From an uncultured Gammaproteobacteria bacterium (GTDB lineage Bacteria; Pseudomonadota; Gammaproteobacteria; Steroidobacterales; Steroidobacteraceae), in assembly GCA_963811115.1 (NCBI GenBank), contig CAWEQB010000012.1:1017762-1081761 (forward strand): 64,000 nt of DNA, written 5' to 3'. Below are positions 4,969-52,641 of this stretch, in pieces. Under the pieces are notes generated by a model that was not told the origin of the DNA, searched no databases, and worked only from the letters and a program-made list of their open reading frames with translations. Made by a program: the position numbers and the translations under genes. Every line of letters begins with the position of its first letter. The first letter of the stretch is position 1.

Positions 4969-5051
4969 TCTCCCGCGATCGTCTGTTAGAATTGCGTGAA
5001 CCTTACGGTTGGCGCAGGGTCGAACGATCAAGATTCGCTGGAGCCTCAAGC

Positions 5052-33240: not shown

Positions 33241-34708
<1,468 letters not shown>

Positions 34709-34709
<1 letters not shown>

Positions 34710-36284
34710 TGCGCGGACATCCACACGGACCGGGTCCTGATACTCGATTTCGGTGCGTCAGTACACGCAGTTGATCGCGCGCCGGGTGCGCGAACTCGGT
34801 GTGTATTCGGAGATTTACTCCTGCGACGTCGATGGCGAGCAGATCAAACGGTTTGCGCCCAAGGCCATCATTCTGTCCGGCGGCCCCGAGTCGGTGTACG
34901 ACGTCAAGGGCCAAGAGGCGTCCGCGCGAGGTCTTTTCCCTGGGCGTGCCGGTTCTCGGCATTTGTTACGGCATGCAGACCATGGCCGCGCAATTGGGCG
35001 GCCAGGTTGAGTCCTCCAGTCATCGCGAGTTCGGCGCCGCGCAAGTGCGGCCTGCGGCGGGCTCTCGGTTGTTCGACGGGCTCGAGGACAATCGCGACGC
35101 GCAAGGCCGCCGCGTGCTCGATGTGTGGATGAGCCACGGCGATCGCGTGGTCGCCGTGCCGCCGGGATTCAAGGTCATCGGCTCGAGCGACAACGCACCG
35201 CTCGCGGCCATGGCGGACGAGTCGCGGTGGTTGTACGGCCTGCAGTTTCATCCCGAGGTGACGCACAGCCTGCAGGGCGGCGAAATTCTGCGGCGCTTCG
35301 TGCGCGAGATCGCCGGCTGTTCCGCGGATTGGGCCACCGGCAATATCATCGAGGACAGCGTCGCGCGGGTGCGCGCCCAAGTCGGCCGCGACAAGGTGCT
35401 GCTCGGATTGTCGGGCGGAGTGGATTCCTCGGTGTTGGCAGCGCTGCTACACCGCGCCATCGGCGCCCAACTCACCTGCGTGTTCGTGGATCACGGCCTG
35501 CTGCGCCTCGGCGAAGGCGATCAGGTGATGGCGACGTTTGCCGAACACATGGGCGTGCAGGTGATCCGCGTCGACGCCGAGCAGCGATTCTTGAAGGCGC
35601 TGGCCGGCGAGGCGGATCCGGAAAAGAAGCGCAAGATCATCGGGCGCATGTTCGTCGAGGTCTTCGACGAGGAAGCGGCGAAGCTCGACGTCAAGTGGCT
35701 GGCGCAGGGCACCATCTATCCCGACGTCATCGAATCTGCCGGCAGCAAGACCGGCAAGGCACACGTCATCAAGTCGCACCATAACGTGGGCGGTTTACCC
35801 GAACACATGAAGCTCAAGCTCCTGGAGCCGCTGCGCGAGTTGTTCAAGGATGAAGTGCGCAAATTGGGAGTCGAGCTCGGCCTGCCTCGGGACATGGTGC
35901 ATCGGCATCCCTTCCCGGGCCCCGGCTTGGGCGTGCGAATTTTGGGCGAAATCCACAAATCGCATGCGGATCTGCTGCGCCGTGCGGACGCGATTTTCAT
36001 CGAGGAGCTGCGCCGCCATGATCTCTATGACAAGGTCAGCCAGGCGTTCGCCGTATTTCTGCCGGTGCGTTCCGTCGGCGTGATGGGCGACGGGCGGCGC
36101 TACGATTATGTGATCGCGCTGCGTGCGGTGGAAACCATCGATTTCATGACGGCGCGCTGGGCGCGATTGCCCTATGAATTTCTCGATCACGTCGTCCACC
36201 GCGTGATCAATGAGGTGCGCGGGAATTTCCCGCGTCGTCTACGACATCTCGGGCAAGCCGCCGGCGACCATCGAGTGGGAGTGA
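34709..36284 (+). CDS. guaA: GMP synthase (glutamine-hydrolysing); the frame is broken by four single extra nucleotides (about 34713, 34758, 34921 and 36224)
   Basis: ATG overlaps the guaB stop (TGATG). Segments: M(R/A)[14 protein letters not shown] | [18 protein letters not shown]...[14 protein letters not shown] | [19 protein letters not shown]...SGGVDSSV...RVINEVRG | [22 protein letters not shown]. The span is 1576 nt, and 1576-4 gives 524 codons. Confidence 0.9.
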
Positions 36285-36362
36285 GGGGACTGCCTACAGA
36301 GTTTGCAACGGTTTGCAGTCAATCCGTAACCCTGGAAACCAGGGCAAAACTGGCAAAAACCC
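36250..36362 (+). repeat. guaA 3'-end unit, copy G (the live gene end plus a tail of about 78 nt ending in a CCCTGG-AAA-CCAGGG hairpin and CAAAACTGGCAAAAAC)
   Basis: Shares ..AT(C/T)GAGTGGGAGTGA and the terminal AACCCTG..C(A/T)GGGCAAAACTGGCAAAAAC block with copies A, B and C. Confidence 0.75.
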
Positions 36363-36623
36363 AATTATCACCAGGGTGAACGGCTCTCAGCTGCCCGCTC
36401 GTATCGTGATCTGATCGCCGTTAGGGGCGAACGGCCGGTGTCGGGCAGGGCGCTACCGCCGCTTTAGGCAAACTCCGGCCAGTGGCAACGCTGAGTAACC
36501 AACCCACGGCCTGCCATTAGACGCTCCGCGTTATGGGCAGACGTACGCGACGGCAGAATCGACAGACTAGACGCTGTTGTCGATGTGGCAGTCCGGCGGG
36601 TTCTCCGGGCAGAATGGGGCATC

Positions 36624-37883
36624 ATGCACGATCAAAAACGACAGAGATTCCGTTCCTCCATAACCCGTCGCCGCTTTATCCTGAGCACTTCGATGCTGCC
36701 GTTTGCCACCTGGGCCGGAGGGCTGGACGCTGGAGTGACCGCCGCGACGGGTATTTCTGGTAGTTCTGAGGTCTTACCAACCAACGTAAAAGACATCTTT
36801 AACGTGCGGGGTTTCGAGCCCCTGGCCCGCGCGGCATTGCCGCCAGCTCACTTCGGATATCTCGCCACCGGCATCGACGACGATCGCACCCTGCGACGAA
36901 ACGAAGACGCATTCAGTGACTACGAAATCCGCGCCCGGCGCTTTATCGACCTGTCTCGGGTCGATACCAGCACTACGGTGTTCGGCGCTCACTGGAGAAC
37001 TCCGGTCTATTTTTCCGCCGTTTCGGCAATGCGTGCATTTCACCCCGATGGGGAGGCAGCGGTGGCGCGTGCTGCCGCAAGCCGGTCGGCCCAACTAATG
37101 GTTTCTACGGGGTCCTCTGTTCCGCTTGAGCAAATTTTGGCACAGCGCGGCGCCCCGGTATGGCAACAGCTTTATCCAACGGACGACTGGACAGTTACAC
37201 GGGAACTCGTGCGTCGCGCCGAATCGGCGGGTGCCGATGCCATTGTGTTGTCAGTGGATTCGACAGCTACCGCGGGTGCTCGGAATTCAGAAACGTTGCG
37301 GCGTGCCGCGCGTGTCGATAAACGTGACTGTACTGCCTGCCATGTCGGAAACCGCCACGACATGTGGCTCCGAGCGCCACTTTTTTCGGGAATCGACGTG
37401 TCACAGGTAAAAGGGCTCGCGCCTCCGGGGCTGACCCTTGAGTGGTTCGATCGCTTGCGTGAACTGGTTCGCGGGAAGCTGCTCATCAAAGGCATCGTGA
37501 CTGGAGAGGATGCGCTAGCGGCGATCGGGCACGGTGCCGATGGAGTCATCGTGTCCAACCATGGTGGCCGCAACGAGGAGACTCTGCGCGCAACAATTGA
37601 TTGTGTCCCAGAAGTTGTTGCTGCCGTGAAAGGCCGCGTTCCGGTATTCATGGATGGGGGCGCGCGAAGAGGCACTGACGTGTTCAAGGCGCTGGCTTTA
37701 GGTGCGTCGGGCGTTGGCATCGGGCGCCCTCAGGGTTGGGGTCTTGCCGCCTTCGGACAGGAAGGCGCCGAGGCTGTGCTCGATATCTATGGCCGCGAAC
37801 TTGAAGCAATCATGCGTCAGGCGGGGACGCCGACGATCGCTGCGATCGGGGCACGTGCTGTTCTCCATCGCGGTGCAGCCTAA
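36624..37883 (+). CDS. FMN-dependent alpha-hydroxy-acid dehydrogenase/oxidase family protein with a twin-arginine signal peptide
   Basis: ATG 36624 inside track ORF 36585-37883. N-terminus MHDQKRQRFRSSITRRRFILSTSMLPFATWAGG (S/T-R-R-x-F-L). TIM-barrel core VSNHGGRNEE...DGGARRGTDVFKALALGA. Confidence 0.75.
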   Translation: MHDQKRQRFRSSITRRRFILSTSMLPFATWAGGLDAGVTAATGISGSSEVLPTNVKDIFNVRGFEPLARAALPPAHFGYLATGIDDDRTLRRNEDAFSDYEIRARRFIDLSRVDTSTTVFGAHWRTPVYFSAVSAMRAFHPDGEAAVARAAASRSAQLMVSTGSSVPLEQILAQRGAPVWQQLYPTDDWTVTRELVRRAESAGADAIVLSVDSTATAGARNSETLRRAARVDKRDCTACHVGNRHDMWLRAPLFSGIDVSQVKGLAPPGLTLEWFDRLRELVRGKLLIKGIVTGEDALAAIGHGADGVIVSNHGGRNEETLRATIDCVPEVVAAVKGRVPVFMDGGARRGTDVFKALALGASGVGIGRPQGWGLAAFGQEGAEAVLDIYGRELEAIMRQAGTPTIAAIGARAVLHRGAA

Positions 37884-38156
37884 AACCCAAAGGCGCAATA
37901 GGACGTGCGCCTCTGCCGACCGGCGATAACGTCAATCTCGTGAACGAAGGCCTGAACACATACGCGTTCTGAGCGGCGAGAATCAGATTTGCCGGTCGGA
38001 CTACTCGGACTGGTGTCCGGAAAGCGGCCGGTTGTATGCGGCAGCAGTGCGTCAGCTTTGACCGCTCGCCGGTGCGGGTAAAACGAGCGTCGCTGTTAAA
38101 TTGCGGATTGTGAACGGCACGTCAGCATCCGCGGCCTGCAGGCGGTTGCCAATCCG

Positions 38157-38179
38157 TTGTATATTAAGGTAATATACAA
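38157..38179. promoter_or_regulatory. Perfect 10-bp inverted repeat (TTGTATATTA-agg-TAATATACAA) abutting the brnT start; candidate BrnA operator
   Basis: Read directly. It ends 1 nt before ATG 38181. Confidence 0.5.
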
Positions 38180-38180
38180 A

Positions 38181-38480
38181 ATGATCGACTTGGCGAAAGT
38201 CATTGGCTTCGAATGGGATGAGGGCAACTCGAGAAAGAATGAGCAGCATGGCGTCTCGAAGGCTGAGGCGGAGCAGGTGTTCTTTAATTCACCGTTGCTT
38301 GTTCTACCCGACCCGAGGCATAGCGAGACCGAACTGCGCTTTCATGCCCTCGGCAGAACCAATGAAGGACGGCGACTGCACATTACCTTTACGCTGAGAG
38401 ACGCCGGGCAGTTCATCCGGGTGATATCGGCCAGAGACATGCACCGGAAGGAGCGCGTGATTTATGAACAAGCGTCTTAA
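38181..38480 (+). CDS. brnT: BrnT-family toxin (ribonuclease toxin of a type II TA pair)
   Basis: MIDLAKVIGFEWDEGNSRKNEQHGVSKAEAEQVF...RVISARDMHRKERVIY, with the typical FEWDE.K..N..KHG pattern. I prefer ATG 38181 over the track start 38157. Confidence 0.8.
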   Translation: MIDLAKVIGFEWDEGNSRKNEQHGVSKAEAEQVFFNSPLLVLPDPRHSETELRFHALGRTNEGRRLHITFTLRDAGQFIRVISARDMHRKERVIYEQAS

Positions 38481-38730
38481 GCCCATCCCGAAATTTGCTA
38501 ATGAGGCCGCGGAAAGGGCGTTCTGGGAAAAGAACGACTCAACGGTGTATATGGATTGGAAAAAAGCGCAGGTGGCTGTGCTTCCTAATCTAAAGCCGTC
38601 TACCCAGACGATCTCATTGCGGCTACCGCAGCATCTTCTTGACTCTATAAAGTCAGCTGCGAACGCGCGAGATGTACCATATCAATCTCTGATCAAGGTG
38701 TGGCTGCAAGAGAAGCTGCAGGATTCGTAA
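38464..38730 (+). CDS. brnA: BrnA-family antitoxin (CopG/RHH-like)
   Basis: 88 aa, overlaps the brnT 3' end by 17 nt. EAAERAFWEKNDST...ISLRLPQHLLDSIKSAANARDVPYQSLIKVWLQEKL. Confidence 0.8.
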   Translation: MNKRLKPIPKFANEAAERAFWEKNDSTVYMDWKKAQVAVLPNLKPSTQTISLRLPQHLLDSIKSAANARDVPYQSLIKVWLQEKLQDS

Positions 38731-38751
38731 TTCCTTTCGGCATCTATCGCC

Positions 38752-38953
38752 CTCTATCGCCCCCAAGCGGAATATTCTGACGGTGCAAATGACGGTAAAA
38801 TTATTGTGCACCGACAAAGAATATCAAGCTTTCAATTGCTTACGGGTGCAGGAGACGATTGAGTGGGAGTGAGCAGACCAAGGCGCTTCTCCAGTGTGGC
38901 ATGGTCGGCTGCGGCGGTAAACCCTGAGTTTCTGGGCAAAACTGGCAAAAACC
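38752..38953 (+). repeat. guaA 3'-end unit, copy A (extended left arm, a pseudo-end ..ACGATTGAGTGGGAGTGA, and a tail of about 81 nt)
   Basis: Alignable end to end with copy C. Over the last 125 nt or so it also aligns with copy B. It carries the same 15-nt guaA terminal codons and the same terminal hairpin/CAAAACTGGCAAAAAC block as copy G. Confidence 0.8.
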
Positions 38954-39081
38954 TGTCGGCTGCAGACGGCCGCCGTAGACTGCATAACTCCGGCGCAGCG
39001 AAATTGCGCATTCGCTGACAGCGCGCCGCCCCGGCACTGTTTCGAATACGATTCTTTAGGCGGCAAGAATCCAGGACCGAA

Positions 39082-40605
39082 GTGCTGAACACTGATCAAA
39101 TTCGTCCACGGCAGCCATTACTGAGCAGTTATGTAGCTCTGGCGTTGGTATTGGCTACGGCGGTGATCACTCCTGCACGCGCTCAAGTACCTATAATAGA
39201 CGTGTCCGGGGCGGCGACGACATTCGCGACTTTGTGTTCGTCCTGTCATGGCTCGGACCTGCAAGGGGGCCAGGGCCCAGCGCTCATCGGTCCGAGCTAC
39301 CTGCACGGCCTTGACGATGTTTCCGTGGCGCGCAGTATTCGAGAGGGCTTCCCGGGGAAAGGGATGCCCGCATGGAGTGCGACCCTCAGCGAGGGACAGA
39401 TTCTTGGGCTCGTAGGCTTTCTCCGAGACCAACGAATAGCGGTGTCACCGGAACACCTTGCGCAGCTTGATGCTGAGCTAAAGGGAAAACTGCATTCGTT
39501 GCGTATAGCCAGCGAGCTGGAGTCGTTTCGCGTTGACATTGTTGCGGAGGTAGGCAAGCCATGGGGAATCGCTTCGCTTCCTGATGGACGCATCCTGGTC
39601 ACCGAGGAAGCGGGAGCACTTCGGGTCATCGACCACGGACACTTGCTCCCCAATCCTGTGGAAACTACGCCGCGCGGAGTTCGCCCGACGGATCACTTTC
39701 AACGTGCATTGCTCGATGTTGCAGTTCACCCTGACTATCAACGCAATCGCTGGATTTATCTTACTTCGGCACAGCAAATCGGGATCGGAGGTGGTACAAG
39801 CAAAACGCAGGTGTCGTTGGTACGAGGGCATTTGCAGGGCAACGCGTGGGTCGACTCCAAAGTCTTGGCGACATTGGATGTCGAAACCGGTACAGCGCGT
39901 ATCGCGTTCGACGACAGCCGTCACGTCTACGTCTCAACTTCGAGCGGGCCGGGAGTAGACGGGGTGACCGGCGCGGCGCCGCTGACGCCTGATCAGCTAT
40001 TGCGCACACCCGCGCAAGACCTGTCGAATCCGCGCGGCAAGATCATGCGCTGGAACGACGATGGATCCATGCCCACTGACAATCCGTTCGTGCAAACCTC
40101 CAACGCCCTACCCGCGATCTGGAGTTATGGGCACCGAAATCCGCAAGGGCTCAGCTTTGATCGAAAGACGCATGAGCTCTGGTCAACAGAGCATGGCCCG
40201 CGGGGAGGTGATGAGCTCAATTGGATACGGGGTGGTCACAACTATGGGTGGCCCGTCATAAGTTACGGTACCCGCTACGACGGTCTGCCGGTCACGAGCG
40301 AGGTGGAACGCGAGGGCATGGACCAACCGGTCATTAACTGGTCGCCGGCGGTCGCCGTATCGGCAATCGCGTTCTACGAGGGAAACGCGTTTCCCAAGTG
40401 GAGGCATAGCCTCTTGGTTGGATCGCTATTGAAGCAGGAGTTGTTGCGGGTTGTGATTCGAGAACAGCTGGCGGTAGTTCAAGAACTGCTCTTAAAGGAT
40501 ATAGGCCGAATTCGTGCTATTACTACCGGCTCCGACGGGAACATTTACCTTGCATTGGAACTGAAGCAACAGGGTCTGGTCGTTCGGTTGTCACCCGCCA
40601 ATTGA
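39082..40605 (+). CDS. Cytochrome c domain fused to a PQQ-dependent sugar (sorbosone/glucose) dehydrogenase beta-propeller
   Basis: 507 aa. Signal/TM segment, haem-binding CSSCH...MPAW, then RILVTEEAGALRVI...HPDYQRNRWIYL...YGHRNPQGLSFD...EHGPRGGDELN...GHNYGWP. Confidence 0.78.
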   Translation: MLNTDQIRPRQPLLSSYVALALVLATAVITPARAQVPIIDVSGAATTFATLCSSCHGSDLQGGQGPALIGPSYLHGLDDVSVARSIREGFPGKGMPAWSATLSEGQILGLVGFLRDQRIAVSPEHLAQLDAELKGKLHSLRIASELESFRVDIVAEVGKPWGIASLPDGRILVTEEAGALRVIDHGHLLPNPVETTPRGVRPTDHFQRALLDVAVHPDYQRNRWIYLTSAQQIGIGGGTSKTQVSLVRGHLQGNAWVDSKVLATLDVETGTARIAFDDSRHVYVSTSSGPGVDGVTGAAPLTPDQLLRTPAQDLSNPRGKIMRWNDDGSMPTDNPFVQTSNALPAIWSYGHRNPQGLSFDRKTHELWSTEHGPRGGDELNWIRGGHNYGWPVISYGTRYDGLPVTSEVEREGMDQPVINWSPAVAVSAIAFYEGNAFPKWRHSLLVGSLLKQELLRVVIREQLAVVQELLLKDIGRIRAITTGSDGNIYLALELKQQGLVVRLSPAN

Positions 40606-40722
40606 CTTGCAAGTGGTGTCAATGATGGAGGGCAACTGTGGAGGTAACGGGGCGGTTGAAGTCTTCGGGAAAGATCGCGCCCCGCGGCGTGGTGTACGAG
40701 CCATGGAACTTGAGCGGCAAGC

Positions 40723-41109
40723 CTACGCAGCTATTCTGTTGCGCGCCCGACCGCGCGGAACGATCAGATCCGCTGAGATGTCAAAGCGCTCGCGGAGCCG
40801 GCGCACCATTGTCATGCTCAAGTCCCGTTTTCCGCTCAGGACCTCGCTCACGCGGCTGGGTGTACCAAGTAACGGCACGAGATCAGCGCGCGAAAGGCCA
40901 TGCTGATCCATTAGGTAGGCGAGAAGCACCGGAAGTGTCGGCGCTGTGCGTGGCCACTGCGAGCGCTCGTAAGCCTCGACCAAGCGGGCCTGGGCTACCA
41001 TCCGTGCACGGTCGTTGGGATCGCTCGACCCCATCAGCTTTTCGACGAGCTTCTTGGCGTCAGCGTGGTCCGCTTCATCTTGAATCACAATCAGGGTCGC
41101 TTTCATCAC
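40723..41109 (-). CDS. higA: HigA-family antitoxin (XRE HTH)
   Basis: 128 aa. N-terminal ...DEADHADAKKLVEKLM..., C-terminal HTH LMDQHGLSRADLVPLLGTPSRVSEVLSGKRDLSMTMVRRL. Confidence 0.75.
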   Translation of the reverse strand: MMKATLIVIQDEADHADAKKLVEKLMGSSDPNDRARMVAQARLVEAYERSQWPRTAPTLPVLLAYLMDQHGLSRADLVPLLGTPSRVSEVLSGKRDLSMTMVRRLRERFDISADLIVPRGRARNRIAA

Positions 41110-41328
41110 ACTGTCTCCGCATCAATGCGTCGTATTCCTCATGCGATCCGAAAAATCGAATCATCAGAACGCCATCCACGTACTGCACCACCGCTATTAA
41201 CCGATAATCGTTGGCCAACCTTCTGGCAACTGGGGGGTGTCCACTTTTCTGGACGCTGAAAGTTTATTCTGGCGAAGACGCAATCCTGCAAATCTGCCCG
41301 CCTACCGTCATCCAGCTGAGGTTGGCCG
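41106..41328 (-). pseudogene. higB: Decayed HigB-family toxin gene (N-terminally truncated, with at least two frame disruptions)
   Basis: The pieces ...ANDYRLIAVVQYVDGVLMIRFFGSHEEYD and ..IDAETV-TGA (the TGA overlaps the higA ATG as TGATG) lie in different frames. Another shift falls at a C7 run. Only about 74 codons of space remain before the arsA stop. Confidence 0.55.
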
Positions 41329-43389
41329 TTAGTGCGCAGCGATGGCTATCGTATTTACGGGCACATCGACCATGTCGTTCGCGATGTCGAGGTGCACATT
41401 CCCAACCACCAGCTTCGATAGCTCAGCAAATCCGATCGGCGGGAGAGTCAGCCAAGGAACCGTGAAGATGCGTTTCGCCAGACCCTCGGCCATCCGTTCC
41501 AGCTGTTTGCGTTCGCCGGCCAGTCGCGCCGCCAGCAAGGGGTCGCGTGTGCCAGCCGCCAGAACACTCTTATTGAGCACCCAAGCATAGGGTTCGATTC
41601 TGGCGCGGCGCAGGTCGGCCTGCAGCGCGGCGGCCTGCGTAACCGGGGTCACTTCCGGCAAGGTCACCAGAATGATTTTCGTGTACGCAGGGTCCTGCAG
41701 CCTCATCAAGGGGGTGACGATGCGCCCGGCGCCGTGGCCTTCGAACTCCCGCATCATTTGCCGGTGGTAGGCGCCTGTCGCGTCCATCAGAAGAAGTGAG
41801 TGTCCGGTGGGTGCGGTGTCCAGCACCACGAAGGCGCTGCGCCCTTCGCTGACGATGCGTGAGAAAGCGTGGAACACTGCGACTTCCTCGGTACACGGAG
41901 AGCGCAGGTCTTCCAGCAATAGCGCTTGTTCCTGCGCGTCAAGACCAGGTGATTTGGCCGCCATGATCTTGTCAACGTAGCGTTGTGTCTCAACCTTTGG
42001 GTCGATGCGGCTCACGCTCAGACCCGTCACTTCGCCATCCAGCGTTTCCGCAAGATGTGCTGCTGGGTCAGTGGTGCTCAGGTGCACAGTTTTGCCGCGC
42101 CGGATCAGTCCAAGGGCCAAGGCGGCTGCTACCGTCGTCTTGCCGACGCCGCCCTTGCCCATCACCATGATGAGCCCATGACCGGCGGTGGCCAGTTCGT
42201 CGGCTAACGCGTCCAAGCCATGCAGGTTCCCGAGGCTGTCGACGGCTGTCGCTTCGCCTGATGCGATAGGGTCCACACCGTCGGCTAGCAGCGCACGCAA
42301 GGCGGGCAAGCCCACCGTGTCGAACGCCCGCAGCGGCACGCGGTCCTGCGGCAAGGCGCGCAGTGCCGGGGGCATGTTGGCCAGAGCTTGCTGGCCCAAG
42401 GCCTCAATTGCACCAGCCACCGCGTCTGTACGATCGCTGGCCTGAAACACGCCGTTGATTGCGAGGCGCTGGTTGTTCAAGCCCAGCGTGTGCAACTCTT
42501 CTGATGTATGTGCCGCTTCGGCGATCGCGCCTTTGTCCGGCCGGGTCACGAGGATCACAGTGGTCTGGGTCGGATTGGTTAGGGCGCCGAGCGCGGTCTT
42601 GAAGCGCTCCTCCTGCATCTTCAGTCCCGAATGCGGCCCGAGGCATGAGGCTCCCCGATCGTTGCCATTCAGAAACCCACTCCATGCCTTGGGCAGACTG
42701 AGCAGGCGCAAAGTGTGCCCCGTCGGTGCCGTGTCAAAGACGATGTGATCGTAATGTTCGTCATTGTTGGACAACAGGGAAGCGAACTCGTCGAAGGAGG
42801 CGATCTCCGTGGTGCAGGCCCCCGACAATTGCTCGCGTACGGTGGCGAGTTCGGCTTCACCGGCTCCGGCTCCCATCTGCGCGAGGACACGCTGCCGATA
42901 AGACTCGGCCGCCGTGTCAGGGTCGATGTTAAGCACGGACAGCCCAGGGGCGCCGGGTACGGGCGTGGGCGAGTTGCGAAGTTGGATCCCCAGCATCTCA
43001 TCCAGGTTCGACGCCGCGTCGGTGCTGACCAGCAGGACCTTCCTGCCTGCGTCCGCCAGGGTCAGGGCCGCCGCGGTCGACAGCGACGTCTTTCCGACGC
43101 CGCCTTTGCCGGTGAAGAACAGGTGTCGGGTCGGCTTGCTCAGAAATCCAATGTGGCCGGGCTCCAGCCATCCTTGAATTTCGTCATGCGATGGCAGGCC
43201 ACCGCTATGCACGATCTTGCCGCCTATAATTACGGCAGGCGTCGCTTTGACACCATGGCGGTGTATCTCTTCGGGGTTCTGGACCTTGATGATTTCAACG
43301 GCAACACCTAAATCGCGGGCGACCCGTTCGATCATGCCGATCGTTACGCGGCACTTGCTGCAACCCGATCCCAAGACTTCAATTTCCAT
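41329..43389 (-). CDS. arsA: Arsenite-stimulated ATPase ArsA (two-domain) with an N-terminal thioredoxin-like CxxC domain fused in frame
   Basis: ATG 43389 inside track ORF 41329-43458. MEIEVLGSGCSKCRVTIGMIERV...ATPAVIIGGKIVHSGG (small redox-active-disulfide Trx fold), then FFTGKGGVGKTS...SGACTTEIASFDEF...GASCLGP...VMGKGGVGKTT...RSPCTEEVAVF...DTAPTGH. Both P-loops and the three As(III)-ligand Cys contexts are present. Confidence 0.85.
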   Translation of the reverse strand: MEIEVLGSGCSKCRVTIGMIERVARDLGVAVEIIKVQNPEEIHRHGVKATPAVIIGGKIVHSGGLPSHDEIQGWLEPGHIGFLSKPTRHLFFTGKGGVGKTSLSTAAALTLADAGRKVLLVSTDAASNLDEMLGIQLRNSPTPVPGAPGLSVLNIDPDTAAESYRQRVLAQMGAGAGEAELATVREQLSGACTTEIASFDEFASLLSNNDEHYDHIVFDTAPTGHTLRLLSLPKAWSGFLNGNDRGASCLGPHSGLKMQEERFKTALGALTNPTQTTVILVTRPDKGAIAEAAHTSEELHTLGLNNQRLAINGVFQASDRTDAVAGAIEALGQQALANMPPALRALPQDRVPLRAFDTVGLPALRALLADGVDPIASGEATAVDSLGNLHGLDALADELATAGHGLIMVMGKGGVGKTTVAAALALGLIRRGKTVHLSTTDPAAHLAETLDGEVTGLSVSRIDPKVETQRYVDKIMAAKSPGLDAQEQALLLEDLRSPCTEEVAVFHAFSRIVSEGRSAFVVLDTAPTGHSLLLMDATGAYHRQMMREFEGHGAGRIVTPLMRLQDPAYTKIILVTLPEVTPVTQAAALQADLRRARIEPYAWVLNKSVLAAGTRDPLLAARLAGERKQLERMAEGLAKRIFTVPWLTLPPIGFAELSKLVVGNVHLDIANDMVDVPVNTIAIAAH

Positions 43390-43741
43390 ACTTACGGCCT
43401 TACACACGATCGTCATCGGAAGCGCACTTGCTGAAAGTGCGAGCGGGCGCGGACTCACGAATAAGCCGACGAACCCGCTTCATTCTACTCGTGAGTAACC
43501 CGACGAGGCATTGGAAGAGCCCTATCCAATGTCTCGTCTTACTAGTGGATGTCCGCATCGGTGGTGTAGGAACACTTAGAGATTGGGTCGGCTGGCGTTA
43601 ATGGTTACGGCCGCGCGGCGCAGAGTCCCGAACGTTGCCGGTCGTTGTTCCCGTCAATTACGTGCTCGGAGTTCGTGGCAGATGCGAGCATTGATCGCTA
43701 TTCGCGTCGCATGGCTGCCAAACCTCAGTAGCAGTCTCGGT

Positions 43742-43866
43742 ATTTCAGGTACTTATAAGTGCCGGAGACAATTGAGTGGGAGTGACCAGACCAGGGCGCT
43801 TCCCTGGTGTTGCACGGTTGGTCGACGCAGAGAACCCTGAGTTTCTGGGCAAAACTGCCAGAAACT
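43742..43866 (+). repeat. guaA 3'-end unit, copy B (short left arm, a pseudo-end ..ACAATTGAGTGGGAGTGA, and the tail)
   Basis: Aligns with copies A and C from ..TTTCAGGTACTTATAAGTGCCGGAGACA.. through ..AACCCTGAGTTTCTGGGCAAAACTGCCAGAAAC. An in-frame TAA lies a few codons before the pseudo-stop. Confidence 0.8.
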
Positions 43867-43954
43867 CACCTTCGTCCGCCGCGCGCAGAGCGGCGCATTA
43901 GCCAGTGAGATTAACTGATTCGACTTCCTAAATTCTTTCCCACGGCTTTTTAGG

Positions 43955-44647
43955 CTAGTTCACAGCCTGAAGCTTTGCTGATTTCATTAAGTTCAAGATC
44001 TCATCATTGATTAGTCCGGGATTGGTTTTTCCGGCGGGTTTCGGGGTGTACGTAGCGGCGACGCCGTAGACGACAACCGAGACTTTCCGCTGTGGATCAA
44101 CCCAGCAGGCAAAGTAACCGTCCAAGCTCACATCGTGATAGGAGGCGACGCCGGATGGCCACGACGACTTAGGCGGCATTCCGATCAAAGTCGGCAGTGG
44201 ACCTGACGCGTCAGCGCTGAGGTCACTGTGGCTTTGCATGGTTCCGTGCCAAAGCGGCCAGCTGTGGCCATCGATTAAAATGTTCCCGACTCTGATGGCC
44301 TGAGATGCATCGGCGAGCGGCCTAGGGTCGCCCATCGCCGATAGCCAAGAACGTTGATCGAGCGCTGTCACCTGCCAAGCCAACGTCTCCAAGTTTGCAG
44401 GGAGAGAGCCATCCCTCTGTTTGATAACGTACCCACCGACCCAGGCCTGATAGTAGGGCGATAATGGATTCGAGCGTTCGCTGTAGGATGTGGTCCAGGT
44501 TCGCGGTCCCGCAAACATGTAATAGTTGACGCCGTTTGCTTTGATCGGATCCCAAATATCGTTCATCTGATTCTTCATTGGCGCGATCCACGCGGGTGGT
44601 GGCTCCGCAAATGAAATCGCCACGGAATCTGCACGCTCCTGTGCCAC
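43955..44647 (-). CDS. Hypothetical protein with no family I recognise; possibly continues upstream to ATG 44825 after a +1 correction
   Basis: 230-aa track ORF (GTG start) in a lower-GC stretch. An upstream 60-codon frame (ORF 44322-44825) encodes a TM anchor (IAIILACLAILAGATYMA) and abuts it in the +1 frame. The span is 871 nt, and 871-1 gives 290 codons. Confidence 0.5.
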   Translation of the reverse strand: MAQERADSVAISFAEPPPAWIAPMKNQMNDIWDPIKANGVNYYMFAGPRTWTTSYSERSNPLSPYYQAWVGGYVIKQRDGSLPANLETLAWQVTALDQRSWLSAMGDPRPLADASQAIRVGNILIDGHSWPLWHGTMQSHSDLSADASGPLPTLIGMPPKSSWPSGVASYHDVSLDGYFACWVDPQRKVSVVVYGVAATYTPKPAGKTNPGLINDEILNLMKSAKLQAVN

Positions 44648-44926
44648 TAACCCAGAGTCCCTGATTCAGAATGATACGCGCGATATTCAATAGCAAAGCG
44701 CACCGCGCCATGTATGTCGCGCCCGCAAGGATTGCCAGGCACGCCAAAATAATGGCGATCCTATTGCGCCATCGAACGAGTATTGGAGTTCCAGTCCGTG
44801 GGGGCGAGAGCATCCTGCCGATCATCGAACTGTTTCCTGCGGAATTCAGGCAAGCGGCTAGCTTATCAGCGTCGCGACGGCAGTCGAGTTCCGCCGGGAC
44901 TACAGAGACGGATTGAAGTCTTCAGG

Positions 44927-45136
44927 ATCTATCGCCGTCTATCGTCCCCAAGCTGAATGTTCTGGCGGTAGATTTGACGGTAAGTCCGGCGCACCACGAC
45001 AAGAAGTCGCGTACTTTCAGTGGCTTATACGTGCCGGAGACAATTGAGTGAGAGTGACCAGACCAAGGCGCTTCCCCAGTGTGGCACGCCCGGCCGACGC
45101 AGTGAACCCTGAGTTTCTGGGGAAAAGTGGCAATAA
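44927..45136 (+). repeat. guaA 3'-end unit, copy C (extended left arm, a pseudo-end ..ACAATTGAGTGAGAGTGA with TGG mutated to TGA, and the tail)
   Basis: Alignable with copy A over its whole length, including the duplicated TCTATCG(C/T)C 9-mer at the left end. Confidence 0.8.
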
Positions 45137-45234
45137 CTCGGAACTGACTGCACGGGGCCTGGGTGCGGGCATCGTGTCCGTTATCTTTTGGCAAGGCGAA
45201 AAGGCGCGTTGCTCGACCCGCATTGCGGATCTCA

Positions 45235-45483
45235 TCACACGGAGACCGGCCGCACCAATTCGACCATCGATGCATTGAACTTCTCGGGCTCATCGACGAA
45301 CGGCTCGTGGCCGGATTCCTCAAACCAGACAAGTCTCTTCGAGGGGGCCGTCAGTACATTGAAGTAGGCCGCGCTGGTATCTGCGGGAACCTGATGATCG
45401 CGGCGTCCAAGAAAGAAGAACACGGGAATCTGCAGCGCGGGCACGACCTTCATGAGATTCAGCGCAGATACTTCAGTCCACAT
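45235..45483 (-). pseudogene. C-terminal fragment of an alpha/beta-hydrolase
   Basis: The 82-aa ORF ...PVFFFLGRRDHQVPADTS...LVWFEESGHEPFVDEPEKFNASMVE is a typical alpha/beta-hydrolase C-terminus with Asp/His triad context. No nucleophile-elbow portion lies upstream, and there is a stop 2 codons before the first Met. Confidence 0.6.
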
Positions 45484-45514
45484 GGCGTCTTAGCCGATCT
45501 GCGAGATCGCGAAC

Positions 45515-45871
45515 TTGGTCATTGAGCGATCGGCGTTGGCGCTCAAAGCGGAGGTCGCGCTGGTGTTCATCGGCGCAGGCGTCGCAGGGACGCTGTACTA
45601 CGGTACCCTGGTGCGGAGGGCGCCGTCAGGACCGGCGCTATCCGTGGCGGCTCCGGTGTTTGCGGCCACACCTCTCCCGGTTGTCTTTGGTATTCCGACA
45701 ATCTATTGGGTCTGCGCAGTCGGTGACTGGTTCACGGCTCTTGTCGCCATGGGTGCCTTGGCGATCCTCTTTCGATGGAAGGTGAGCAATCCGCTCCTCA
45801 TGGCAGCCACGGCCCTCGCAGGCTTGATTGCGTTTCCCTTGTTGCATCCGAGTTGGATGATGTTGAAATGA
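45515..45871 (+). pseudogene. Possible C-terminal fragment of a CHR-family (chromate) transporter
   Basis: The 118-aa ORF ends ...DWFTALVAMGALAILFRWKVSNPLLMAATALAGLIAFPLL, which resembles CHR C-termini. The N-terminal part shows no family pattern. Assignment is weak. Confidence 0.3.
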
Positions 45872-46851
45872 GAATTCCGGCGTTGCTGTTGGTGGTGCTC
45901 GGGATCGAACTCGGCGGGGCGGTGAATGCCGCGCCGCTGGAGCTTGAGGCGAAAATCCCCTTGGGTGAGGTGCGCGGCCGGATCGATCATCTTGCCGTCG
46001 ATGTCGAGCGGCAACGACTGTATGTGGCCGAGCTCGGAAACGACAGCGTAGGTGTCGTAGACCTGAAGGAGCGCAAGGTCGTTCGAACTCTCGCGGGGCT
46101 CAAAGAACCACAGGGAATCGGCTATGTGCGTTCCACAGATACAGTTTACGTAGCCAATGCAGGCGACGGTTCCGTGCGGATGTTTCAGGGCGCGAACCTG
46201 ACGCCGGCAGGGAAGATCGACTTCGGCAGTGATGCTGACAACGTGCGTATAGACGATGCCGCGGGTCGCATTTTCGTAGGATACGGTGATGGGGCTCTCG
46301 CCGTGATCGACGCAGCCAGTCGCCGGAAGCTCTCAGACATCCCACTCCAGGCCCATCCAGAGAGCTTCCAACTCGACAGCTCCGGTCAGCGCATCTACGT
46401 CAATGTTCCCGATGCGCGCCAGATCGCATTCGTGGATCGCTCGGCCAATAGGCAGATTGCCCCATGGTCAACGGGCGGCCTGCGCGCCAATTTCCCCCTT
46501 GCCCTGGATGAGCCTCATGGGCGACTGCTGGCGATTTTTCGTCATCCAGCACGATTGGGCGAATTCGATCTGCAGGATGGACGTCTATTGTCGACTGCCA
46601 ACACATGCGAGGATGCGGACGATGCATTCATCGACGCGAAACGAAACCGCGTTTACGTCAGCTGCGGAGAGGGATTCCTGGACGTACTTGCGTTGCAGGG
46701 CTCGGGCTACGTGAGCATAGGAAGGGTCCGGACAGCTCCGGGTGCTCGTACAGCGTTGTACGTTTCGACCATGGACCGGCTGATGCTGGCCGTGCGCGCG
46801 ACAGGAGACATCCCGGCGAGCGTCTGGGTATTTCGCCCCACATCAGAATGA
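45868..46851 (+). CDS. Secreted YncE/YVTN-type beta-propeller repeat protein
   Basis: ATG 45868 (ATGA overlap with the preceding ORF). Signal peptide MRIPALLLVVLGIELGGAVNA. Repeated ..RLYVAELGNDSVGVVD.., ..TVYVANAGDGSV.., ..RIFVGYGDGALAVID.., ..RIYVNVPDARQIAFVD.. blades. Confidence 0.65.
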   Translation: MRIPALLLVVLGIELGGAVNAAPLELEAKIPLGEVRGRIDHLAVDVERQRLYVAELGNDSVGVVDLKERKVVRTLAGLKEPQGIGYVRSTDTVYVANAGDGSVRMFQGANLTPAGKIDFGSDADNVRIDDAAGRIFVGYGDGALAVIDAASRRKLSDIPLQAHPESFQLDSSGQRIYVNVPDARQIAFVDRSANRQIAPWSTGGLRANFPLALDEPHGRLLAIFRHPARLGEFDLQDGRLLSTANTCEDADDAFIDAKRNRVYVSCGEGFLDVLALQGSGYVSIGRVRTAPGARTALYVSTMDRLMLAVRATGDIPASVWVFRPTSE

Positions 46852-47918
46852 TGAGATTCACAACGAAGACCGCGGTCCGCGTTCGGCACAAACGGCGTGG
46901 GTCGGCATGGCTTCTCAACGTCACGCTTGCGTTGGCAGGTACGGCCGTTGCACCGCCGACGCATGCCGACTCCCCGGAACTTGCAATCCGCGATTTCTCC
47001 TCCGGTCAGATCAAGAAAGGCGTGCGCTCGATCGGATTTGGAGGCGATGGAGCGACCTGGGGGAACTATGGGCTAGTCTGGAGGGATGCGGGAACGGGTC
47101 TGGTTGACTACGGGAACACGTCTTACAGTAATGGCAACGATTTCTCCTTTGCAGCGCTCGGGGCCACAACACCCTCGTTGTGGCACGACCTGGCGATTTA
47201 CGTCATTGCGATGTCCGAGCGCACCAGTACCGTTAACTTTGATCTCCGCTCGCCGGGTCTGGGTCAAGGCCCGACACCCGTGACCGGTGAGGGGCATGAT
47301 GACGCCCTCTTCTCCAAGGTGGCGCTGCCGCTCGGCCACGGCGTGTCAGCCGGCGTTCTCCTATCCTACGAAATCTCGCATTTCGATGCGCACTCCATCG
47401 CAGTTCCGGCTGACACGGTCCGCTATCAGACCGAGTGGCGCCCATCGGGTGGCTTCGGCGTCGCCTGGCAGCCGAACAAGCAGCTGCTGTTCGGCTTTCG
47501 TGCGCTACTCAACAATGATCTGGAGCAACGCATCGATCCCTCGGGAGTCAGCGAGGGCTTGGCTCGCTCGTATGAGTATCGCCTCGGAGGGTCCGTCTCG
47601 CCGTGGGAGGGTGCATTGCTCGATATTGGGGGCACGCGCCTGGAGAAGCGCAACGCCATTGCCAAGACTCACACGATCGCCTACGAACCGAACATTGGTT
47701 TCGAGCAGGCGATCAACCGGTGCTTCGTGGTCCGCCTGGGTGTGGATGAAACCTCACCGACGGCGGGATTCTCGCTCAAGTTTGCACCGATCACGGTCGA
47801 CATCGCCTACGTCCGCGATATGGCTCGAGCCCGAGTCGGGCAACTGTTTGGGTCTCGCAGTGACAGCCTCGTTGCCACCTTCGTGTTGAACTACGAAGCA
47901 CTAGGGCGGGAGCACTGA
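46848..47918 (+). CDS. Hypothetical secreted protein, possibly an outer-membrane beta-barrel
   Basis: ATG 46848 overlaps the upstream stop (ATGA). Signal-like WLLNVTLALAGTAVAPPTHA. Alternating beta-strand-like pattern with aromatic residues toward the C-terminus (..LVATFVLNYEALGREH). I recognise no family. Confidence 0.45.
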   Translation: MMRFTTKTAVRVRHKRRGSAWLLNVTLALAGTAVAPPTHADSPELAIRDFSSGQIKKGVRSIGFGGDGATWGNYGLVWRDAGTGLVDYGNTSYSNGNDFSFAALGATTPSLWHDLAIYVIAMSERTSTVNFDLRSPGLGQGPTPVTGEGHDDALFSKVALPLGHGVSAGVLLSYEISHFDAHSIAVPADTVRYQTEWRPSGGFGVAWQPNKQLLFGFRALLNNDLEQRIDPSGVSEGLARSYEYRLGGSVSPWEGALLDIGGTRLEKRNAIAKTHTIAYEPNIGFEQAINRCFVVRLGVDETSPTAGFSLKFAPITVDIAYVRDMARARVGQLFGSRSDSLVATFVLNYEALGREH

Positions 47919-47922
47919 ACGA

Positions 47923-49104
47923 ATGCACGCAGTCAAAAAGTTCGGTGTCCATGTTGACGTGTTGAAGCTCGGTCTCGTGAGCTTCCTGACAGATCTCAGT
48001 TCGGAGATGATATTTTCGGTCTTCGCAATTTTCTTTACGACGATCGCGGGCGCATCGGCTGCCCTGCTCGGACTTGTTGAAGGCGCCGCCGATTTCTCCT
48101 CGTCCTGCTTGGATTACGTCGCGGGTTGGTCGTCGGAGAGAACAGGGAGACGCAAGTTGTTCGCTCTGGCCGGCTACGGCTTTTCCACGCTGGCCAAGGT
48201 CATTCTGCCGCTGACCACTTCGATCACGGGTCTTAGTGCCTTCCGTGTAATCGAAAGAATGGGAAAGAGCTTCCGGGGACCGCCGCGTGATGCCTGGCTT
48301 TCGGCAGTTGCGGACAAAGCCGCGCGCGGATATTCATTTGGAGTCCACAAGGCGCTCGACAAGTCTGGAGCGATCCTGGGCCCGTTGATCGCGTATGGCC
48401 TGATTTCGCGGCTCGGGGATCACGCGCCGACATATCGGACGCTGTTTTGGGTCGCGCTTGTCCCGGCGGTGCTCAGCGTTGCTGTGCTGAGTTTCATCAA
48501 GGAGCAACCGGGGATTGCGCGCCGGCGCGACAACATGTTCAACACTTTGAAGACCTTGAGCCCCGGCTTTAGAAGGTACCTTATCGCCGCCGGGATCTTC
48601 TCGCTGGCTTATTTCAGCTTCGGCTTCCTTCTGTTACGCGCGCACGACGTCGGGTTCGCCGTCAAGGACGTCATACTGCTCTATGCGCTGTTCAACATCG
48701 CGTTCGTCGTATCCGCGCCGTTGATCGGGCGACTTGGCGACTGGTGCGGCAGGGCACGTATCATTCTGCTTGGCTACCTGACCTATCTGCTGATGAGTCT
48801 TGGTTTTGCATTTGCGGCCACAAAATGGCAGGTGATTCTCCTGTTCATCGTCTATGGCGTGTTCTATTCGATCGACGAGGCACAGAGTAAGGCTTTCATC
48901 GCGGATATCGAGCTGGAGCGGCGCGCGTCCGCGATCGGCGCCTATAATTTTGTTACCGGACTCATCTACGTGCCCGCTTCGCTCGCTGCTGGAGCATTGT
49001 GGGTCATTAGCCCGGTTATTGCCTTCTTGGTCGCTGCCTGTCTTGCGCTTTCAGCGATCGTGGCGTTTGCAATCTTGCGGCCGGATCTGTCACCGGTCGC
49101 CTAG
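47923..49104 (+). CDS. MFS transporter
   Basis: 393 aa, about 12 TM helices, starting 5 nt after the upstream stop. Confidence 0.7.
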   Translation: MHAVKKFGVHVDVLKLGLVSFLTDLSSEMIFSVFAIFFTTIAGASAALLGLVEGAADFSSSCLDYVAGWSSERTGRRKLFALAGYGFSTLAKVILPLTTSITGLSAFRVIERMGKSFRGPPRDAWLSAVADKAARGYSFGVHKALDKSGAILGPLIAYGLISRLGDHAPTYRTLFWVALVPAVLSVAVLSFIKEQPGIARRRDNMFNTLKTLSPGFRRYLIAAGIFSLAYFSFGFLLLRAHDVGFAVKDVILLYALFNIAFVVSAPLIGRLGDWCGRARIILLGYLTYLLMSLGFAFAATKWQVILLFIVYGVFYSIDEAQSKAFIADIELERRASAIGAYNFVTGLIYVPASLAAGALWVISPVIAFLVAACLALSAIVAFAILRPDLSPVA

Positions 49105-49556
49105 GCCGGCGACGGTACGGCCGCCATTTCGCGCACTTGTATTTCCAGCGCACGCGCACCACGCAGAGAATTCGCCACCAAGCAAAGCTTTTCAGCCCGC
49201 TCCAAAAGCTCGCGCGCCTTGGCGTGATCGGCATTGGACTGGACGGTCAACGTGGCTCGGGTGATGTAGCGAACGAATTGAGTGACTCCGGAAACCCGTT
49301 CCAACGTGCCATCCACGTGAGCCTCGAGGCCAACCCACTCGAAGCGGGCGGCGCGGGATACACCTCGAAATGTCAGGAGGAAGCAGTCGGCGATGGCGGC
49401 GACGAGCAGCGTCTCAGGGGACCAAACACCTCCGGGTCCGTCGAATTCCGGCGGCGGGGCGGTCGCTATGCCCGGCAATCCGGTCGACATGACAGAAACG
49501 GCTCCCGACGCAGAACCCTTGGCGGTAACGGTATACGAGTGCGGGTATGGTTTCAC
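49101..49556 (-). CDS. OsmC/Ohr-family peroxiredoxin-like protein
   Basis: In-frame GTG 49556 preceded by GGAGA, inside track ORF 49101-49628. PEFDGPGGVWSPETLLVAAIADCFLLTF...AEKLCLVANSL, with the two conserved Cys. Confidence 0.7.
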   Translation of the reverse strand: MKPYPHSYTVTAKGSASGAVSVMSTGLPGIATAPPPEFDGPGGVWSPETLLVAAIADCFLLTFRGVSRAARFEWVGLEAHVDGTLERVSGVTQFVRYITRATLTVQSNADHAKARELLERAEKLCLVANSLRGARALEIQVREMAAVPSPA

Positions 49557-49948
49557 GAATGTTCTCCGCTGCAACTGTGGTTTGCTCAGATGATTTTTCC
49601 GCTCCAGGCTAACAGCCACGGCGGCCATTCAACATACGTAGCTCCGTGCAGATTGTGCGGCAATCGCTTATGGCCTTATTTTCGCCGGTGTCTTGGCCGG
49701 CGCGCGACTACGTTGAGGAGAGGGAAGGCCGCGAAGCAGACCTGAGCCGCAAGGCCGATTACACCGGCGAGTGACCGGAGATCGGCAAGGTAGTCGTTGT
49801 CAGAATGATGGGCGCCTCGACCGAAACAGCTATTGTCGGGCCAAAGTGTGGGGCAAGCAGCAGAACGCGGGCCGCTCCGAGAAGGAAGCCGATCGTAAAG
49901 ACAGTGACCGCGTAGGCTATTCCGGCCTTGGCGCTCAACGCGAGGAGT

Positions 49949-50545: not shown

Positions 50546-50550
50546 TGTAG

Positions 50551-51666: not shown

Positions 51667-51812
51667 AGACTACTTTCAGCGATGCACCGCTGGTTGAGAA
51701 AAATGCGCCTTGGCGCTCTGGAAAGGCAGCCGGAAAAATGCGCAAAGCCTAGGTACATCTCCTAGTATCTTCTCGTTGCCAATATGACAGTGTCGGCTCA
51801 GGATTTTGAGGA

Positions 51813-52231: not shown

Positions 52232-52311
52232 GACTTTCCGACTAATATAGCGTGTAGGAACTGATGACGGTACTTGACCAATTCATCAACCGACCCAGCC
52301 TGGTGACCACT

Positions 52312-52620: not shown

Positions 52621-52641
52621 TCAGCGCGCCAGGCTTTCTGG

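Follow-up and report, generated by a model that had tools for sequence, protein, structure and literature searches.

A probable array of small integrase-less cassettes at the 3′ end of guaA in an uncultured member of the Steroidobacteraceae

The DNA analysed here is a window of 64,000 nucleotides from an uncultured gammaproteobacterium of the family Steroidobacteraceae (contig CAWEQB010000012.1), in which copies of the 3′ end of guaA delimit a series of small gene cassettes. The target gene guaA, encoding GMP synthase, lies at 34710..36284 on the forward strand and was located by tblastn with E. coli GuaA and by translation. It is preceded by guaB (33241-34706, tblastn with E. coli GuaB), and the arrangement of guaB and xseA upstream of guaA is the same as in E. 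coli. The tblastn alignment with E. coli GuaA reaches position 36281 and thus the first repeat copy is the true end of the gene. Four co-oriented copies of this end are present, at 36260, 38848, 43761 and 45033. With up to one mismatch, the 12-mer GAGTGGGAGTGA occurs exactly four times in the window, at 36273, 38861, 43774 and 45046 and always on the forward strand, against a chance expectation of 0.23; a count of four was reached in none of 100 shuffles. The end of the following tail, GGGCAAAACTGGCAAAAAC (up to three mismatches), was detected only at 36342, 38934, 43847 and 45119 with an expectation of 0.02. The four direct copies reported in a preliminary description of the sequence were therefore confirmed, and a sensitive nhmmer profile search of the window found no further units beyond them.

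When the four copies were aligned, as had been proposed in that description, a core plus tail of about 105 nt proved to be common to all of them. The repeat finder returned the same shared stretch with 75-83% identity between the units. The three downstream copies, named A, B and C, are closer to each other than to the live guaA end according to both analyses, and the alignment shows TGG changed to TGA in copy C, the core of which reads GAGTGAGAGTGA. Both observations agree with the preliminary description. Its repeat unit was right in the shared core and tail but too short, as it missed an arm upstream of the guaA mimic: about 115 nt are also conserved there in the profile and the unit measures approx. 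225 nt in A and C. It consists of this arm with repeats at fixed positions (P arm), a core containing GAGTGGGA and a tail of about 80 nt.

The array opens with an attL-like junction at 36260..36366 (+; nhmmer profile positions 124-229), where the live guaA end meets the tail of cassette 1. Its core is GCCGGCGACCATCGAGTGGGAGTGA with the stop codon at 36282-36284, and it has no P arm. The tail variant found after the live guaA of the window also occurs in contig L001, there after a pseudo-end. The cargo of cassette 1 (36367..38728, +) was assigned with Pfam and comprises an FMN-dependent dehydrogenase (FMN_dh) with a Tat signal and the twin-arginine motif ITRRRFIL (36585-37883), the toxin BrnT (38157-38480) and the CopG-type antitoxin BrnA (38464-38730). 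An identical BrnA is encoded in six other contigs next to different neighbours. Unit A follows at 38729..38956 (+) as a full attP-like site, matched by nhmmer with an E value of 1e-61 over profile positions 5-227. Its arm contains TCTATCG at -118 and -108 and ACGGTA at -69 relative to the core, the -81 site being degenerate in the motif scan; the core GGAGACGATTGAGTGGGAGTGA and a class-I tail complete the unit.

Cassette 2 (38957..43718, genes on both strands) carries a cytochrome c-GSDH dehydrogenase fusion (39082-40605, +), a HigA-like helix-turn-helix protein (HTH_3; 40723-41109, -) and a Trx-ArsA fusion of Thioredoxin_3 with two ArsA ATPase domains (41329-43458, -), all assigned with Pfam. 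The higB gene between the latter two had been called dead, and only its C-terminal 31 codons are indeed left (41123-41215, -). In contigs L003 and L004, the ArsA cassette runs directly from the core through the tail and a 76-amino-acid open reading frame (ORF) to ArsA, without GSDH and HigBA. The usual start of the ArsA cassette and the 5′ two-thirds of higB are gone in the window; two older cassettes were fused into cassette 2 by a deletion that removed the unit between them.

Unit B (43719..43871, +; nhmmer profile positions 82-229) is truncated. Its distal 80 nt are gone and the P arm is reduced to the core-proximal 45 nt or so; the core that follows is intact and the tail belongs to class I. 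No RCGGTA or TCTATCG motif was found in the motif scan of unit B, so all the arm repeats from -118 to -69 are lost. Cassette 3 (43872..44913) contains a single orphan ORF of 230 amino acids (43955-44647, -) that matched no Pfam or NCBIfam family, and the exact protein has no record elsewhere. Unit C (44914..45141, +; nhmmer E 2e-64) is again a full attP-like site, in which none of the four arm repeats (-118, -108, -81 and -69) is missing; the last tail comes after it. Within its crossover segment lies the G-to-A change already mentioned. The cargo listed earlier from the letters alone was thereby upheld throughout, including the lack of a family for the orphan ORF.

Compared with the E. coli proteins, tblastn revealed three frameshifts in guaA (four segments) and two in guaB (three frames), one of those in guaA being an extra G within a GGG run near 36222. 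The cargo ORFs of the array, about 5.5 kb, are free of such frame breaks. With at least one of them in a G homopolymer, the frameshifts in guaA and guaB are probably indel errors of a long-read assembly rather than marks of pseudogenes. Caution is advisable with any ‘pseudogene’ call in the window that depends on a single base.

The distribution of the unit was studied in two scans. A scan of 185,579 species genomes with the tail motif gave nine blocks in eight soil metagenome-assembled genomes (MAGs), described as uncultured Gammaproteobacteria or Steroidobacteraceae, and all blocks lie at guaA or in arrays; one MAG contig of 2.25 Mb holds two of these blocks, 16 kb apart. A metagenome scan with the pseudo-end motif gave at least 120 contigs, mostly from peat, bog and soil. 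At least 221 units were mapped in at least 129 contigs from the soil MAGs and the peat and soil metagenomes, and within every contig all units share one orientation. Two or more units are present in 55 of the 129 contigs, the highest number being seven within 14 kb (L099). Wherever a contig contains guaA (9/9), the gene is co-oriented with the units and its stop codon forms the first of them. The earlier view of the locus as a tandem accretion array at guaA is in line with these co-oriented, clustered units and with breakpoints that fall in their cores, as described below. Arrays of this kind at guaA were not found described in literature searches covering open-access papers and preprints.

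Among the 89 cassettes with a unit at either end, the interior has a median length of 2.2 kb and mostly holds one or two ORFs. Their cargo ORFs run with the array direction in 145 cases and against it in 103. With both orientations represented, the cassettes therefore possess promoters of their own, in contrast to those of integrons. Cargo types that recur are AAA_14/DUF4143 ATPases, Fic, HigB/HigA, BrnTA and AbiEii/AbiEi proteins, regulators (LysR, TetR, AraC), enzymes (SDR and zinc dehydrogenases, GNAT acetyltransferases), transporters (MFS, EamA, ACR3-type) and a few IS66 and IS6 transposases. Two apparent protein families were discarded: the most frequent one in the arrays (46 members) is an antisense reading of the unit itself, and another with 14 members is the antisense of a HigBA cassette.

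In 77 distinct full units, the consensus arm reads TTCGGCATCTATCGCCGTCTATCGCC..CAAGCGG..TTTGGCGGTAGATCTGACGGTAAGT..TTCA....CTTATA, the consensus core is GTGCCGGAGACAATTGAGTGGGAGTGA and the tail closes with GGGCAAAACTGGCAAAAAC. Short motifs stand at fixed distances from the core: TCTATCG at -118 (112 of 186 cores) and at -108 (110 of 186), RCGGTA at -81 (92 of 186) and most often at -69 (144 of 186), and TCAR-N4-TTR at -29 in 106 of 154 cores. Where the IHF consensus is conserved, the last motif presumably conforms to it. A conserved single-strand fold was not found in the 77 units (alifold -1.6, no covarying helix) and Rfam gave nothing relevant for the unit. Repeats at fixed offsets without a conserved fold are the layout of a duplex attP and not of an RNA or an attC hairpin. 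Judged from its sequence, the unit is a complex attP of the lambda/P4 type with predicted protein-binding repeats in its arm, and the conservation of the arm suggests that it is under selection. Copies in the window had been regarded as relics of gene ends. They are more than that, as each cassette carries a full attP-like site with arm repeats, but B and C do look damaged.

The same data bear on a possible identity as an integron-like system with folded attC-type sites or as a dispersed repeat of the REP (repetitive extragenic palindromic) or MITE (miniature inverted-repeat transposable element) kind. An array of small cassettes rich in toxin-antitoxin genes superficially resembles sedentary chromosomal integrons, with which it shares a fixed platform, many small cassettes and a cassette order that is shuffled between relatives, and the units do contain short hairpins. 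Unlike those integrons, the arrays have no IntI at the platform, which is the end of a housekeeping gene, and their sites are attP-like duplexes rather than folded attC hairpins; cassettes with their own promoters lie in both orientations. Dispersal, which the preliminary description had named as a refutation, was not observed: the unit is restricted to the array within the 64 kb, the copies are clustered rather than scattered, the genome scan found them only in the eight MAGs, and orientation is uniform in the 129 contigs. No match to the unit was found in viral contigs or in plasmid and phage collections. The fold, IntI, gene-orientation and dispersal tests refute an integron or REP/MITE identity, the probability of which is practically nil.

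Two kinds of irregular site were observed among the units. In ‘empty’ junctions, a core runs directly into P-arm repeats or into a further P arm with its core, and both cargo and class-I tail are missing, as at 999-1213 of L048 and also in L005, L012, L019 and L037 (a tail cluster of 10). In contig L002 (MAG contig CAVSES010000002.1), a decayed unit at 4925-5115 (-) has a degenerate arm and an intact class-I tail, and GAGTGGGAGTGA is deleted. An intact unit is located 16 kb upstream of it. A protein encoded next to the unsequenced 8-kb gap of the same contig is frameshifted in the MAG and has a 91% relative in an arsenic island without integrase or units.

The point of exchange can be read from two contigs, L044 and L084, which are 98-99.8% identical and differ by exactly one cassette of 4.2 kb that is lacking in L084. 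The junction unit of L084 combines the left part of unit 2 of L044 with the right part of unit 3, and the switch falls within a shared stretch of 23 nt, GGAGACAATTGAGTGGGAGTGAG. One cassette stands after the live guaA in L044 and after a pseudo-end in L084, and identity begins at GAGTGGGAGTGA. Live ends read ..ACC ATC GAG TGG GAG TGA and pseudo-ends ..ACA ATT GAG TGG GAG TGA, so that the difference at ATY places the exchange point to the right of this codon. Taken together, the L044/L084 junctions narrow the crossover window to 13 nt or less, containing GAGTGGGA. A difference of a single cassette with a crossover in the core supports site-specific gain or loss of cassettes, and is the cassette-wise variation at the repeats for which a comparison of related loci had been suggested.

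The tail goes with the right-hand cassette and the P arm with the left-hand one. The tail variant of the ArsA cassette, CACGCCGCTACCCTATTTT, follows the live guaA of L004 as well as the pseudo-ends of L003 and L005, and the boundary between live guaA and pseudo-end is always at GAGTGGGAGTGA. The BrnTA module of the window is 94% identical to that of L003 and 88% to that of L005, adjoining a unit, and the ArsA gene is 93-94% identical to those of L003 and L004. In comparison, guaA and guaB of the window are only 74-75% identical to those of L004. The position of ArsA differs as well: it is found directly after guaA in L004, after BrnTA in L003 and after GSDH and HigA in the window. With cassettes at 93-95% identity against about 74% for guaA, the comparison suggests that the cassettes move horizontally between divergent hosts.

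RecA-dependent homologous recombination between the repeats of about 225 bp, for instance after transformation, might in principle shuffle cassettes with no dedicated recombinase. The units do share long similar stretches, direct-repeat arrays are prone to deletion in this way, and no recombinase was found. Yet the parental units of L044 have an even longer stretch of identity in common within the P arm, CTATCGCCGTCTATCGCCCCCAAGCGGAAG, and the switch to the L084 junction nevertheless lies in the 23-nt core. The constant boundary at GAGTGGGAGTGA speaks against this process too, and it leaves unexplained both the repeats at fixed offsets and the match to the attR of an E. coli integrase described next. 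Homologous recombination is consequently considered a very improbable cause of the arrays.

Two insertions at guaA of E. coli have the same architecture. Among 5,426 complete E. coli genomes, the guaA end is parted from its usual neighbour in 859 (16%). In strain DEC9B, a prophage of about 40 kb occupies the site, with attL directly followed by the gene for a P4-like integrase of 418 amino acids (WP_000954565.1). In the attR of this prophage, ACGGTA stands at -81 and -69 and TCAA-N4-TTA at -29, counted from GAGTGGGA; these are exactly the offsets of the soil units, and the attL side contains GGCGGTA-N5-GACGGTA, much like the soil arm. In strain TB06052 (L135, 8291-12125), the insert is only 3.8 kb in size, lacks an integrase and carries two DUF262 genes, with ATTGAGTGGGAGTGA and ATCGAGTGGGAATAA as its boundaries and ATGGTA and GTGGTA at -81 and -69. 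Both strains thus share with the soil units the core GAGTGGGA and arm hexamers at precisely -81 and -69, and DEC9B also the -29 motif. The likeness is limited to these motifs without overall similarity, the E. coli cases examined are single insertions, and the pair of TCTATCG motifs and the class-I tail belong to the soil lineage only and are not part of the E. coli sites.

The arrays can further be compared with several known systems. In marine cyanobacteria, tycheposon-type island arrays consist of tandem cargo segments between partial copies of a target gene, some of them without an integrase; in contrast to the guaA arrays, their targets are tRNA genes and their recombinase families differ. 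For GIsul2, the crossover core GAGTGGGA at guaA was defined experimentally, and its Int excises and integrates CR2-sul2, an integrase-less sub-unit with such cores at its ends; in Aeromonas caviae, a guaA island with CR2-sul2 units in tandem was reported (PMC9376610). The core of the window units contains this crossover sequence, in agreement with the preliminary description, which names the 3′ end of guaA as a documented attB. PIMEs are guaA elements of 10-30 kb that are defined by int, alpA, replication and oriT modules (bioRxiv 10.64898/2026.01.12.698999). GIsul2 and the PIMEs resemble the arrays in the last guaA codons as target, in the core GAGTGGGA and in part of the cargo (arsenic resistance, toxin-antitoxin pairs). 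They differ in that the published att sites of GIsul2 measure 19 bp (PMC9376610), whereas each cassette of the arrays keeps a site of about 225 bp with arm repeats, and arrays of up to seven units with hundreds of mini-cassettes are not described for this family. Modules for int, alpA and replication were absent from the window cassettes and from the recurrent cargo of the 129 contigs, oriT not having been searched for. Lacking genes for int, alpA, replication and transfer, the cassettes are to be seen as users of the PIME site and not as members of the family.

In their anatomy, the arrays come closest to the concept of cis-mobilisable elements (CIMEs) and tandem accretion. CIMEs are att-flanked elements without integration and transfer genes that can lie in tandem at one site; they are regarded as occasional decay products of integrative and conjugative or integrative and mobilisable elements, and mobilisation by the integrase of a neighbour or helper is expected (PMC5704250). 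The arrays share with them the att repeats derived from a gene 3′ end, the missing integrase, excisionase and transfer genes and the tandem arrangement at one site. In contrast to CIMEs, lack of an integrase is the rule throughout the 129 contigs. In addition, the cassettes are tiny (median 2.2 kb), up to seven units stand in one array, and hundreds of copies keep the long att arm with its fixed spacing.

Recombinase genes were searched for with a motif regular expression and with phmmer and tblastn, using lambda Int, E. coli IntA, XerD and the guaA-specific integrase of E. coli as queries, next to Pfam and NCBIfam. None of these methods detected a tyrosine or serine recombinase from 36.3 to 64 kb of the window, which corroborates the earlier statement that this part has no integrase. 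Full-length P4-like integrases used as controls scored E < 1e-33 with the same queries, and a linked integrase of this type would have been seen. Weak matches turned out to be TPR, HDIG and IS6 proteins according to Pfam and NCBIfam. A recombinase motif in an ORF of 458 amino acids at 30339-31715 (-) was rejected as well, as the ORF is a spurious Arg-rich antisense frame with no family match; the real gene presumably lies on the opposite strand.

The only tyrosine recombinase of the window is a XerD homologue at 3634-4968 (+), with an E value of 1.6e-109 to E. coli XerD. A tRNA-Leu(CAA) gene is located at 6801-6887 (-); like the XerD homologue, it lies about 30 kb upstream of the array, and no link to the array was seen. 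Elements that exploit host Xer recombinases, such as the CTX/TLC arrays and the pdif modules of Acinetobacter, have no recombinase of their own, form tandem arrays and often carry toxin-antitoxin genes. The arrays at guaA resemble them in these respects, and host XerC/XerD acting on the units, in the manner of integrative elements that exploit Xer (IMEX) or of dif modules, was considered as an explanation. A 28-bp dif-like site with an XerD arm of the TTATGTTAAAT type was not found in the consensus, as judged by a visual check and not by a formal search. Exchange takes place in the guaA end, at the GIsul2 core; the arm repeats correspond to those in the attR of a P4-like integrase, and the XerD homologue, 31 kb off, looks like a housekeeping enzyme. 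A role of Xer in moving the cassettes is scarcely plausible on these grounds.

Remnants of another type of integrase are present in some arrays. In L062 and L144, a P4-type N-terminal remnant (PF13356) lies just downstream of the core and is co-oriented with it. These stand-alone ORFs with an Arm DNA-binding domain (PF13356/DUF4102) are located at 2856-3359 (-) in L062, where the ORF is fused to a fragment of an IS6-type transposase, and at 10001-10294 (+) in L144; Fic follows in both. Stand-alone proteins with this domain have more than 2,000 homologues, and the best 120 listed are all without a catalytic domain. They could be propagated integrase remnants or functional binders of arm sites. 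The nearest relative with a full-length integrase, P0164, belongs to an int-alpA module at a site other than guaA. The match to the DEC9B attR, the TB06052 cassette and the integrase remnants in the arrays together point to an integrase of the P4-like type.

Some further observations were made in the course of this search. ORFs consisting of the Arm domain only (P0001-P0126, PF13356/DUF4102) have about 70-190 amino acids and are often preceded by or fused to a transposase of the IS6/IS240 type. P0127 (839 amino acids) shows an unusual repeat architecture with five consecutive matches to the Arm DNA-binding domain, and P0128 (498 amino acids) has two such matches. The P0260 contexts L155-L158 share a conserved block of about 20 kb for arsenic and oxidative stress that is related to the ars cassette of L005. 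It comprises ArsP, thioredoxin, ABC/RND-like efflux, an FAD oxidoreductase, an ArsR-type regulator, a catalase-peroxidase and a peroxiredoxin; neither units nor an integrase were found in the 20 kb examined.

Altogether, the region is probably an array of small integrase-less integrative cassettes that were stacked at the guaA 3′ end by site-specific recombination. Each cassette would consist of a left tail (P′ side), one to three accessory genes with their own promoters and a right P arm ending in the guaA-end mimic. Once circularised, it would present a complete attP of about 225 bp with two TCTATCG and two RCGGTA repeats, an IHF-like site, the GAGTGGGA core and the tail. On insertion, the cassette core would recombine with the identical core at the guaA end or in any resident unit, regenerating the last guaA codons, and adjacent cassettes would then meet in hybrid, attP-like junctions. 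A cassette would be released again when two neighbouring cores recombine. The enzyme would most likely be a P4-like tyrosine integrase with an arm-binding N-terminal domain, as for the E. coli guaA prophages and GIsul2/PIME elements. It would act in trans, its gene lying at another place in the genome or on a helper element that is present only transiently. Circular intermediates, binding of protein to the repeats and present-day activity in this genome would also belong to this account.

Several points weigh against it. The central actor is missing, as no full-length integrase was found among all ORFs of 685 kb of array contigs or in six further contexts of 20 kb, the screen being weaker for families other than P4-like. 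As many contigs end inside arrays, linked integrases could sit beyond their ends. About 40% of the cores are followed by a tail other than class I which, along with the empty junctions, suggests that the site may not require the tail. The scan pattern fixed 22 nt of the core and its invariance is therefore partly due to ascertainment; the conservation of arm and tail is free of this effect. Finally, given the limited identity of the window units and the damage to two of them, this particular array may be inert.

The last point leads to the alternative of a pure fossil array, in which guaA islands of the PIME/GIsul2 kind or prophages, with their own integrases, inserted serially and then decayed to inert scars through deletion of the integrase and most of the genes. 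It draws on the lost arm repeats of unit B, the mutated core of unit C and the deletion fusion with truncated higB in cassette 2, as well as on units that are just 75-83% identical, the truncated integrase N-termini in some arrays and the lack of an integrase nearby. Independent decay, however, would not yield hundreds of cassettes with one to three genes, each with an arm of 115 nt at fixed offsets. Nor does it fit a precise difference of one cassette, with its crossover in the core, between arrays that are 99.8% identical, or near-identical cassettes in divergent hosts in different orders. A purely fossil origin is thus unlikely, albeit far from negligible. The preliminary description had left the choice between modules mobilised in trans and fossils. 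Its first option is favoured for the family, which shows recent and precise gain and loss, and the second retains some value for the damaged units B and C of the window. A family that is active while the window array is partly dead can be reconciled with both readings.

With regard to cassette stacking by site-specific recombination, the array of the window appears to be partly decayed. Judging from other tyrosine recombinases, the G-to-A change in the crossover segment of unit C should hinder strand exchange. Cassette 1 alone looks fully competent, as both flanking cores are intact and an arm is present at its right; the rest may be frozen. The G+C content drops from about 64% upstream of guaA to 52-60% within the array and stays low until approx. 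54 kb. The distal flank (45142..54000, G+C 57-60%, examined by composition and Pfam) opens with a truncated alpha/beta-hydrolase of which a C-terminal fragment remains (45235-45483, -), and then contains beta-propeller proteins, an MFS transporter, a cytochrome b561, an AI-2E-type transporter and a LysR regulator. No remnant of a unit was found between 45142 and 54000 with sensitive nhmmer. The 9 kb or so of low G+C past the last unit are probably older island material, possibly cassettes with eroded units. Look-ups of exact proteins for strain variants of the window locus gave two proteins without a record.

On this reading, site-specific accretion at guaA takes the form of widespread arrays of integrase-less mini-cassettes with a complex attP per cassette. 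Its main support comes from the exact single-cassette difference at the core in L044 and L084 and from an att architecture that also occurs in a cultured E. coli system. More speculatively, the guaA arrays might be a second, integron-independent platform for cassette capture, in which one unlinked and possibly domesticated P4-like integrase would serve hundreds of mini-cassettes, each with a full attP and with the end of an essential gene as docking site; the stand-alone Arm-domain proteins might then regulate or inhibit movement by occupying the RCGGTA sites. This extension is offered tentatively and may well prove wrong.

Islands that spread resistance and defence genes, namely GIsul2, PIMEs, prophages and satellites, are known to dock at the 3′ end of guaA. 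The arrays use the same site, core and arm architecture at another scale, as a store of accessory genes in uncultured Gammaproteobacteria of soil and peat. Toxin-antitoxin pairs and regulators are kept there, as are transporters, redox enzymes and arsenic resistance. Should the cassettes be moved in trans, a guaA-specific integrase could mobilise a pool of DNA much larger than the elements encoding such an integrase, and island finders that require an integrase would miss this class. The unit of about 225 bp would in that case be a simple probe for retrieving such cassettes from metagenomes. Owing to the shared layout at -81, -69 and -29, the E. coli prophage with its cultured host and known integrase offers a tractable model for cassette capture.

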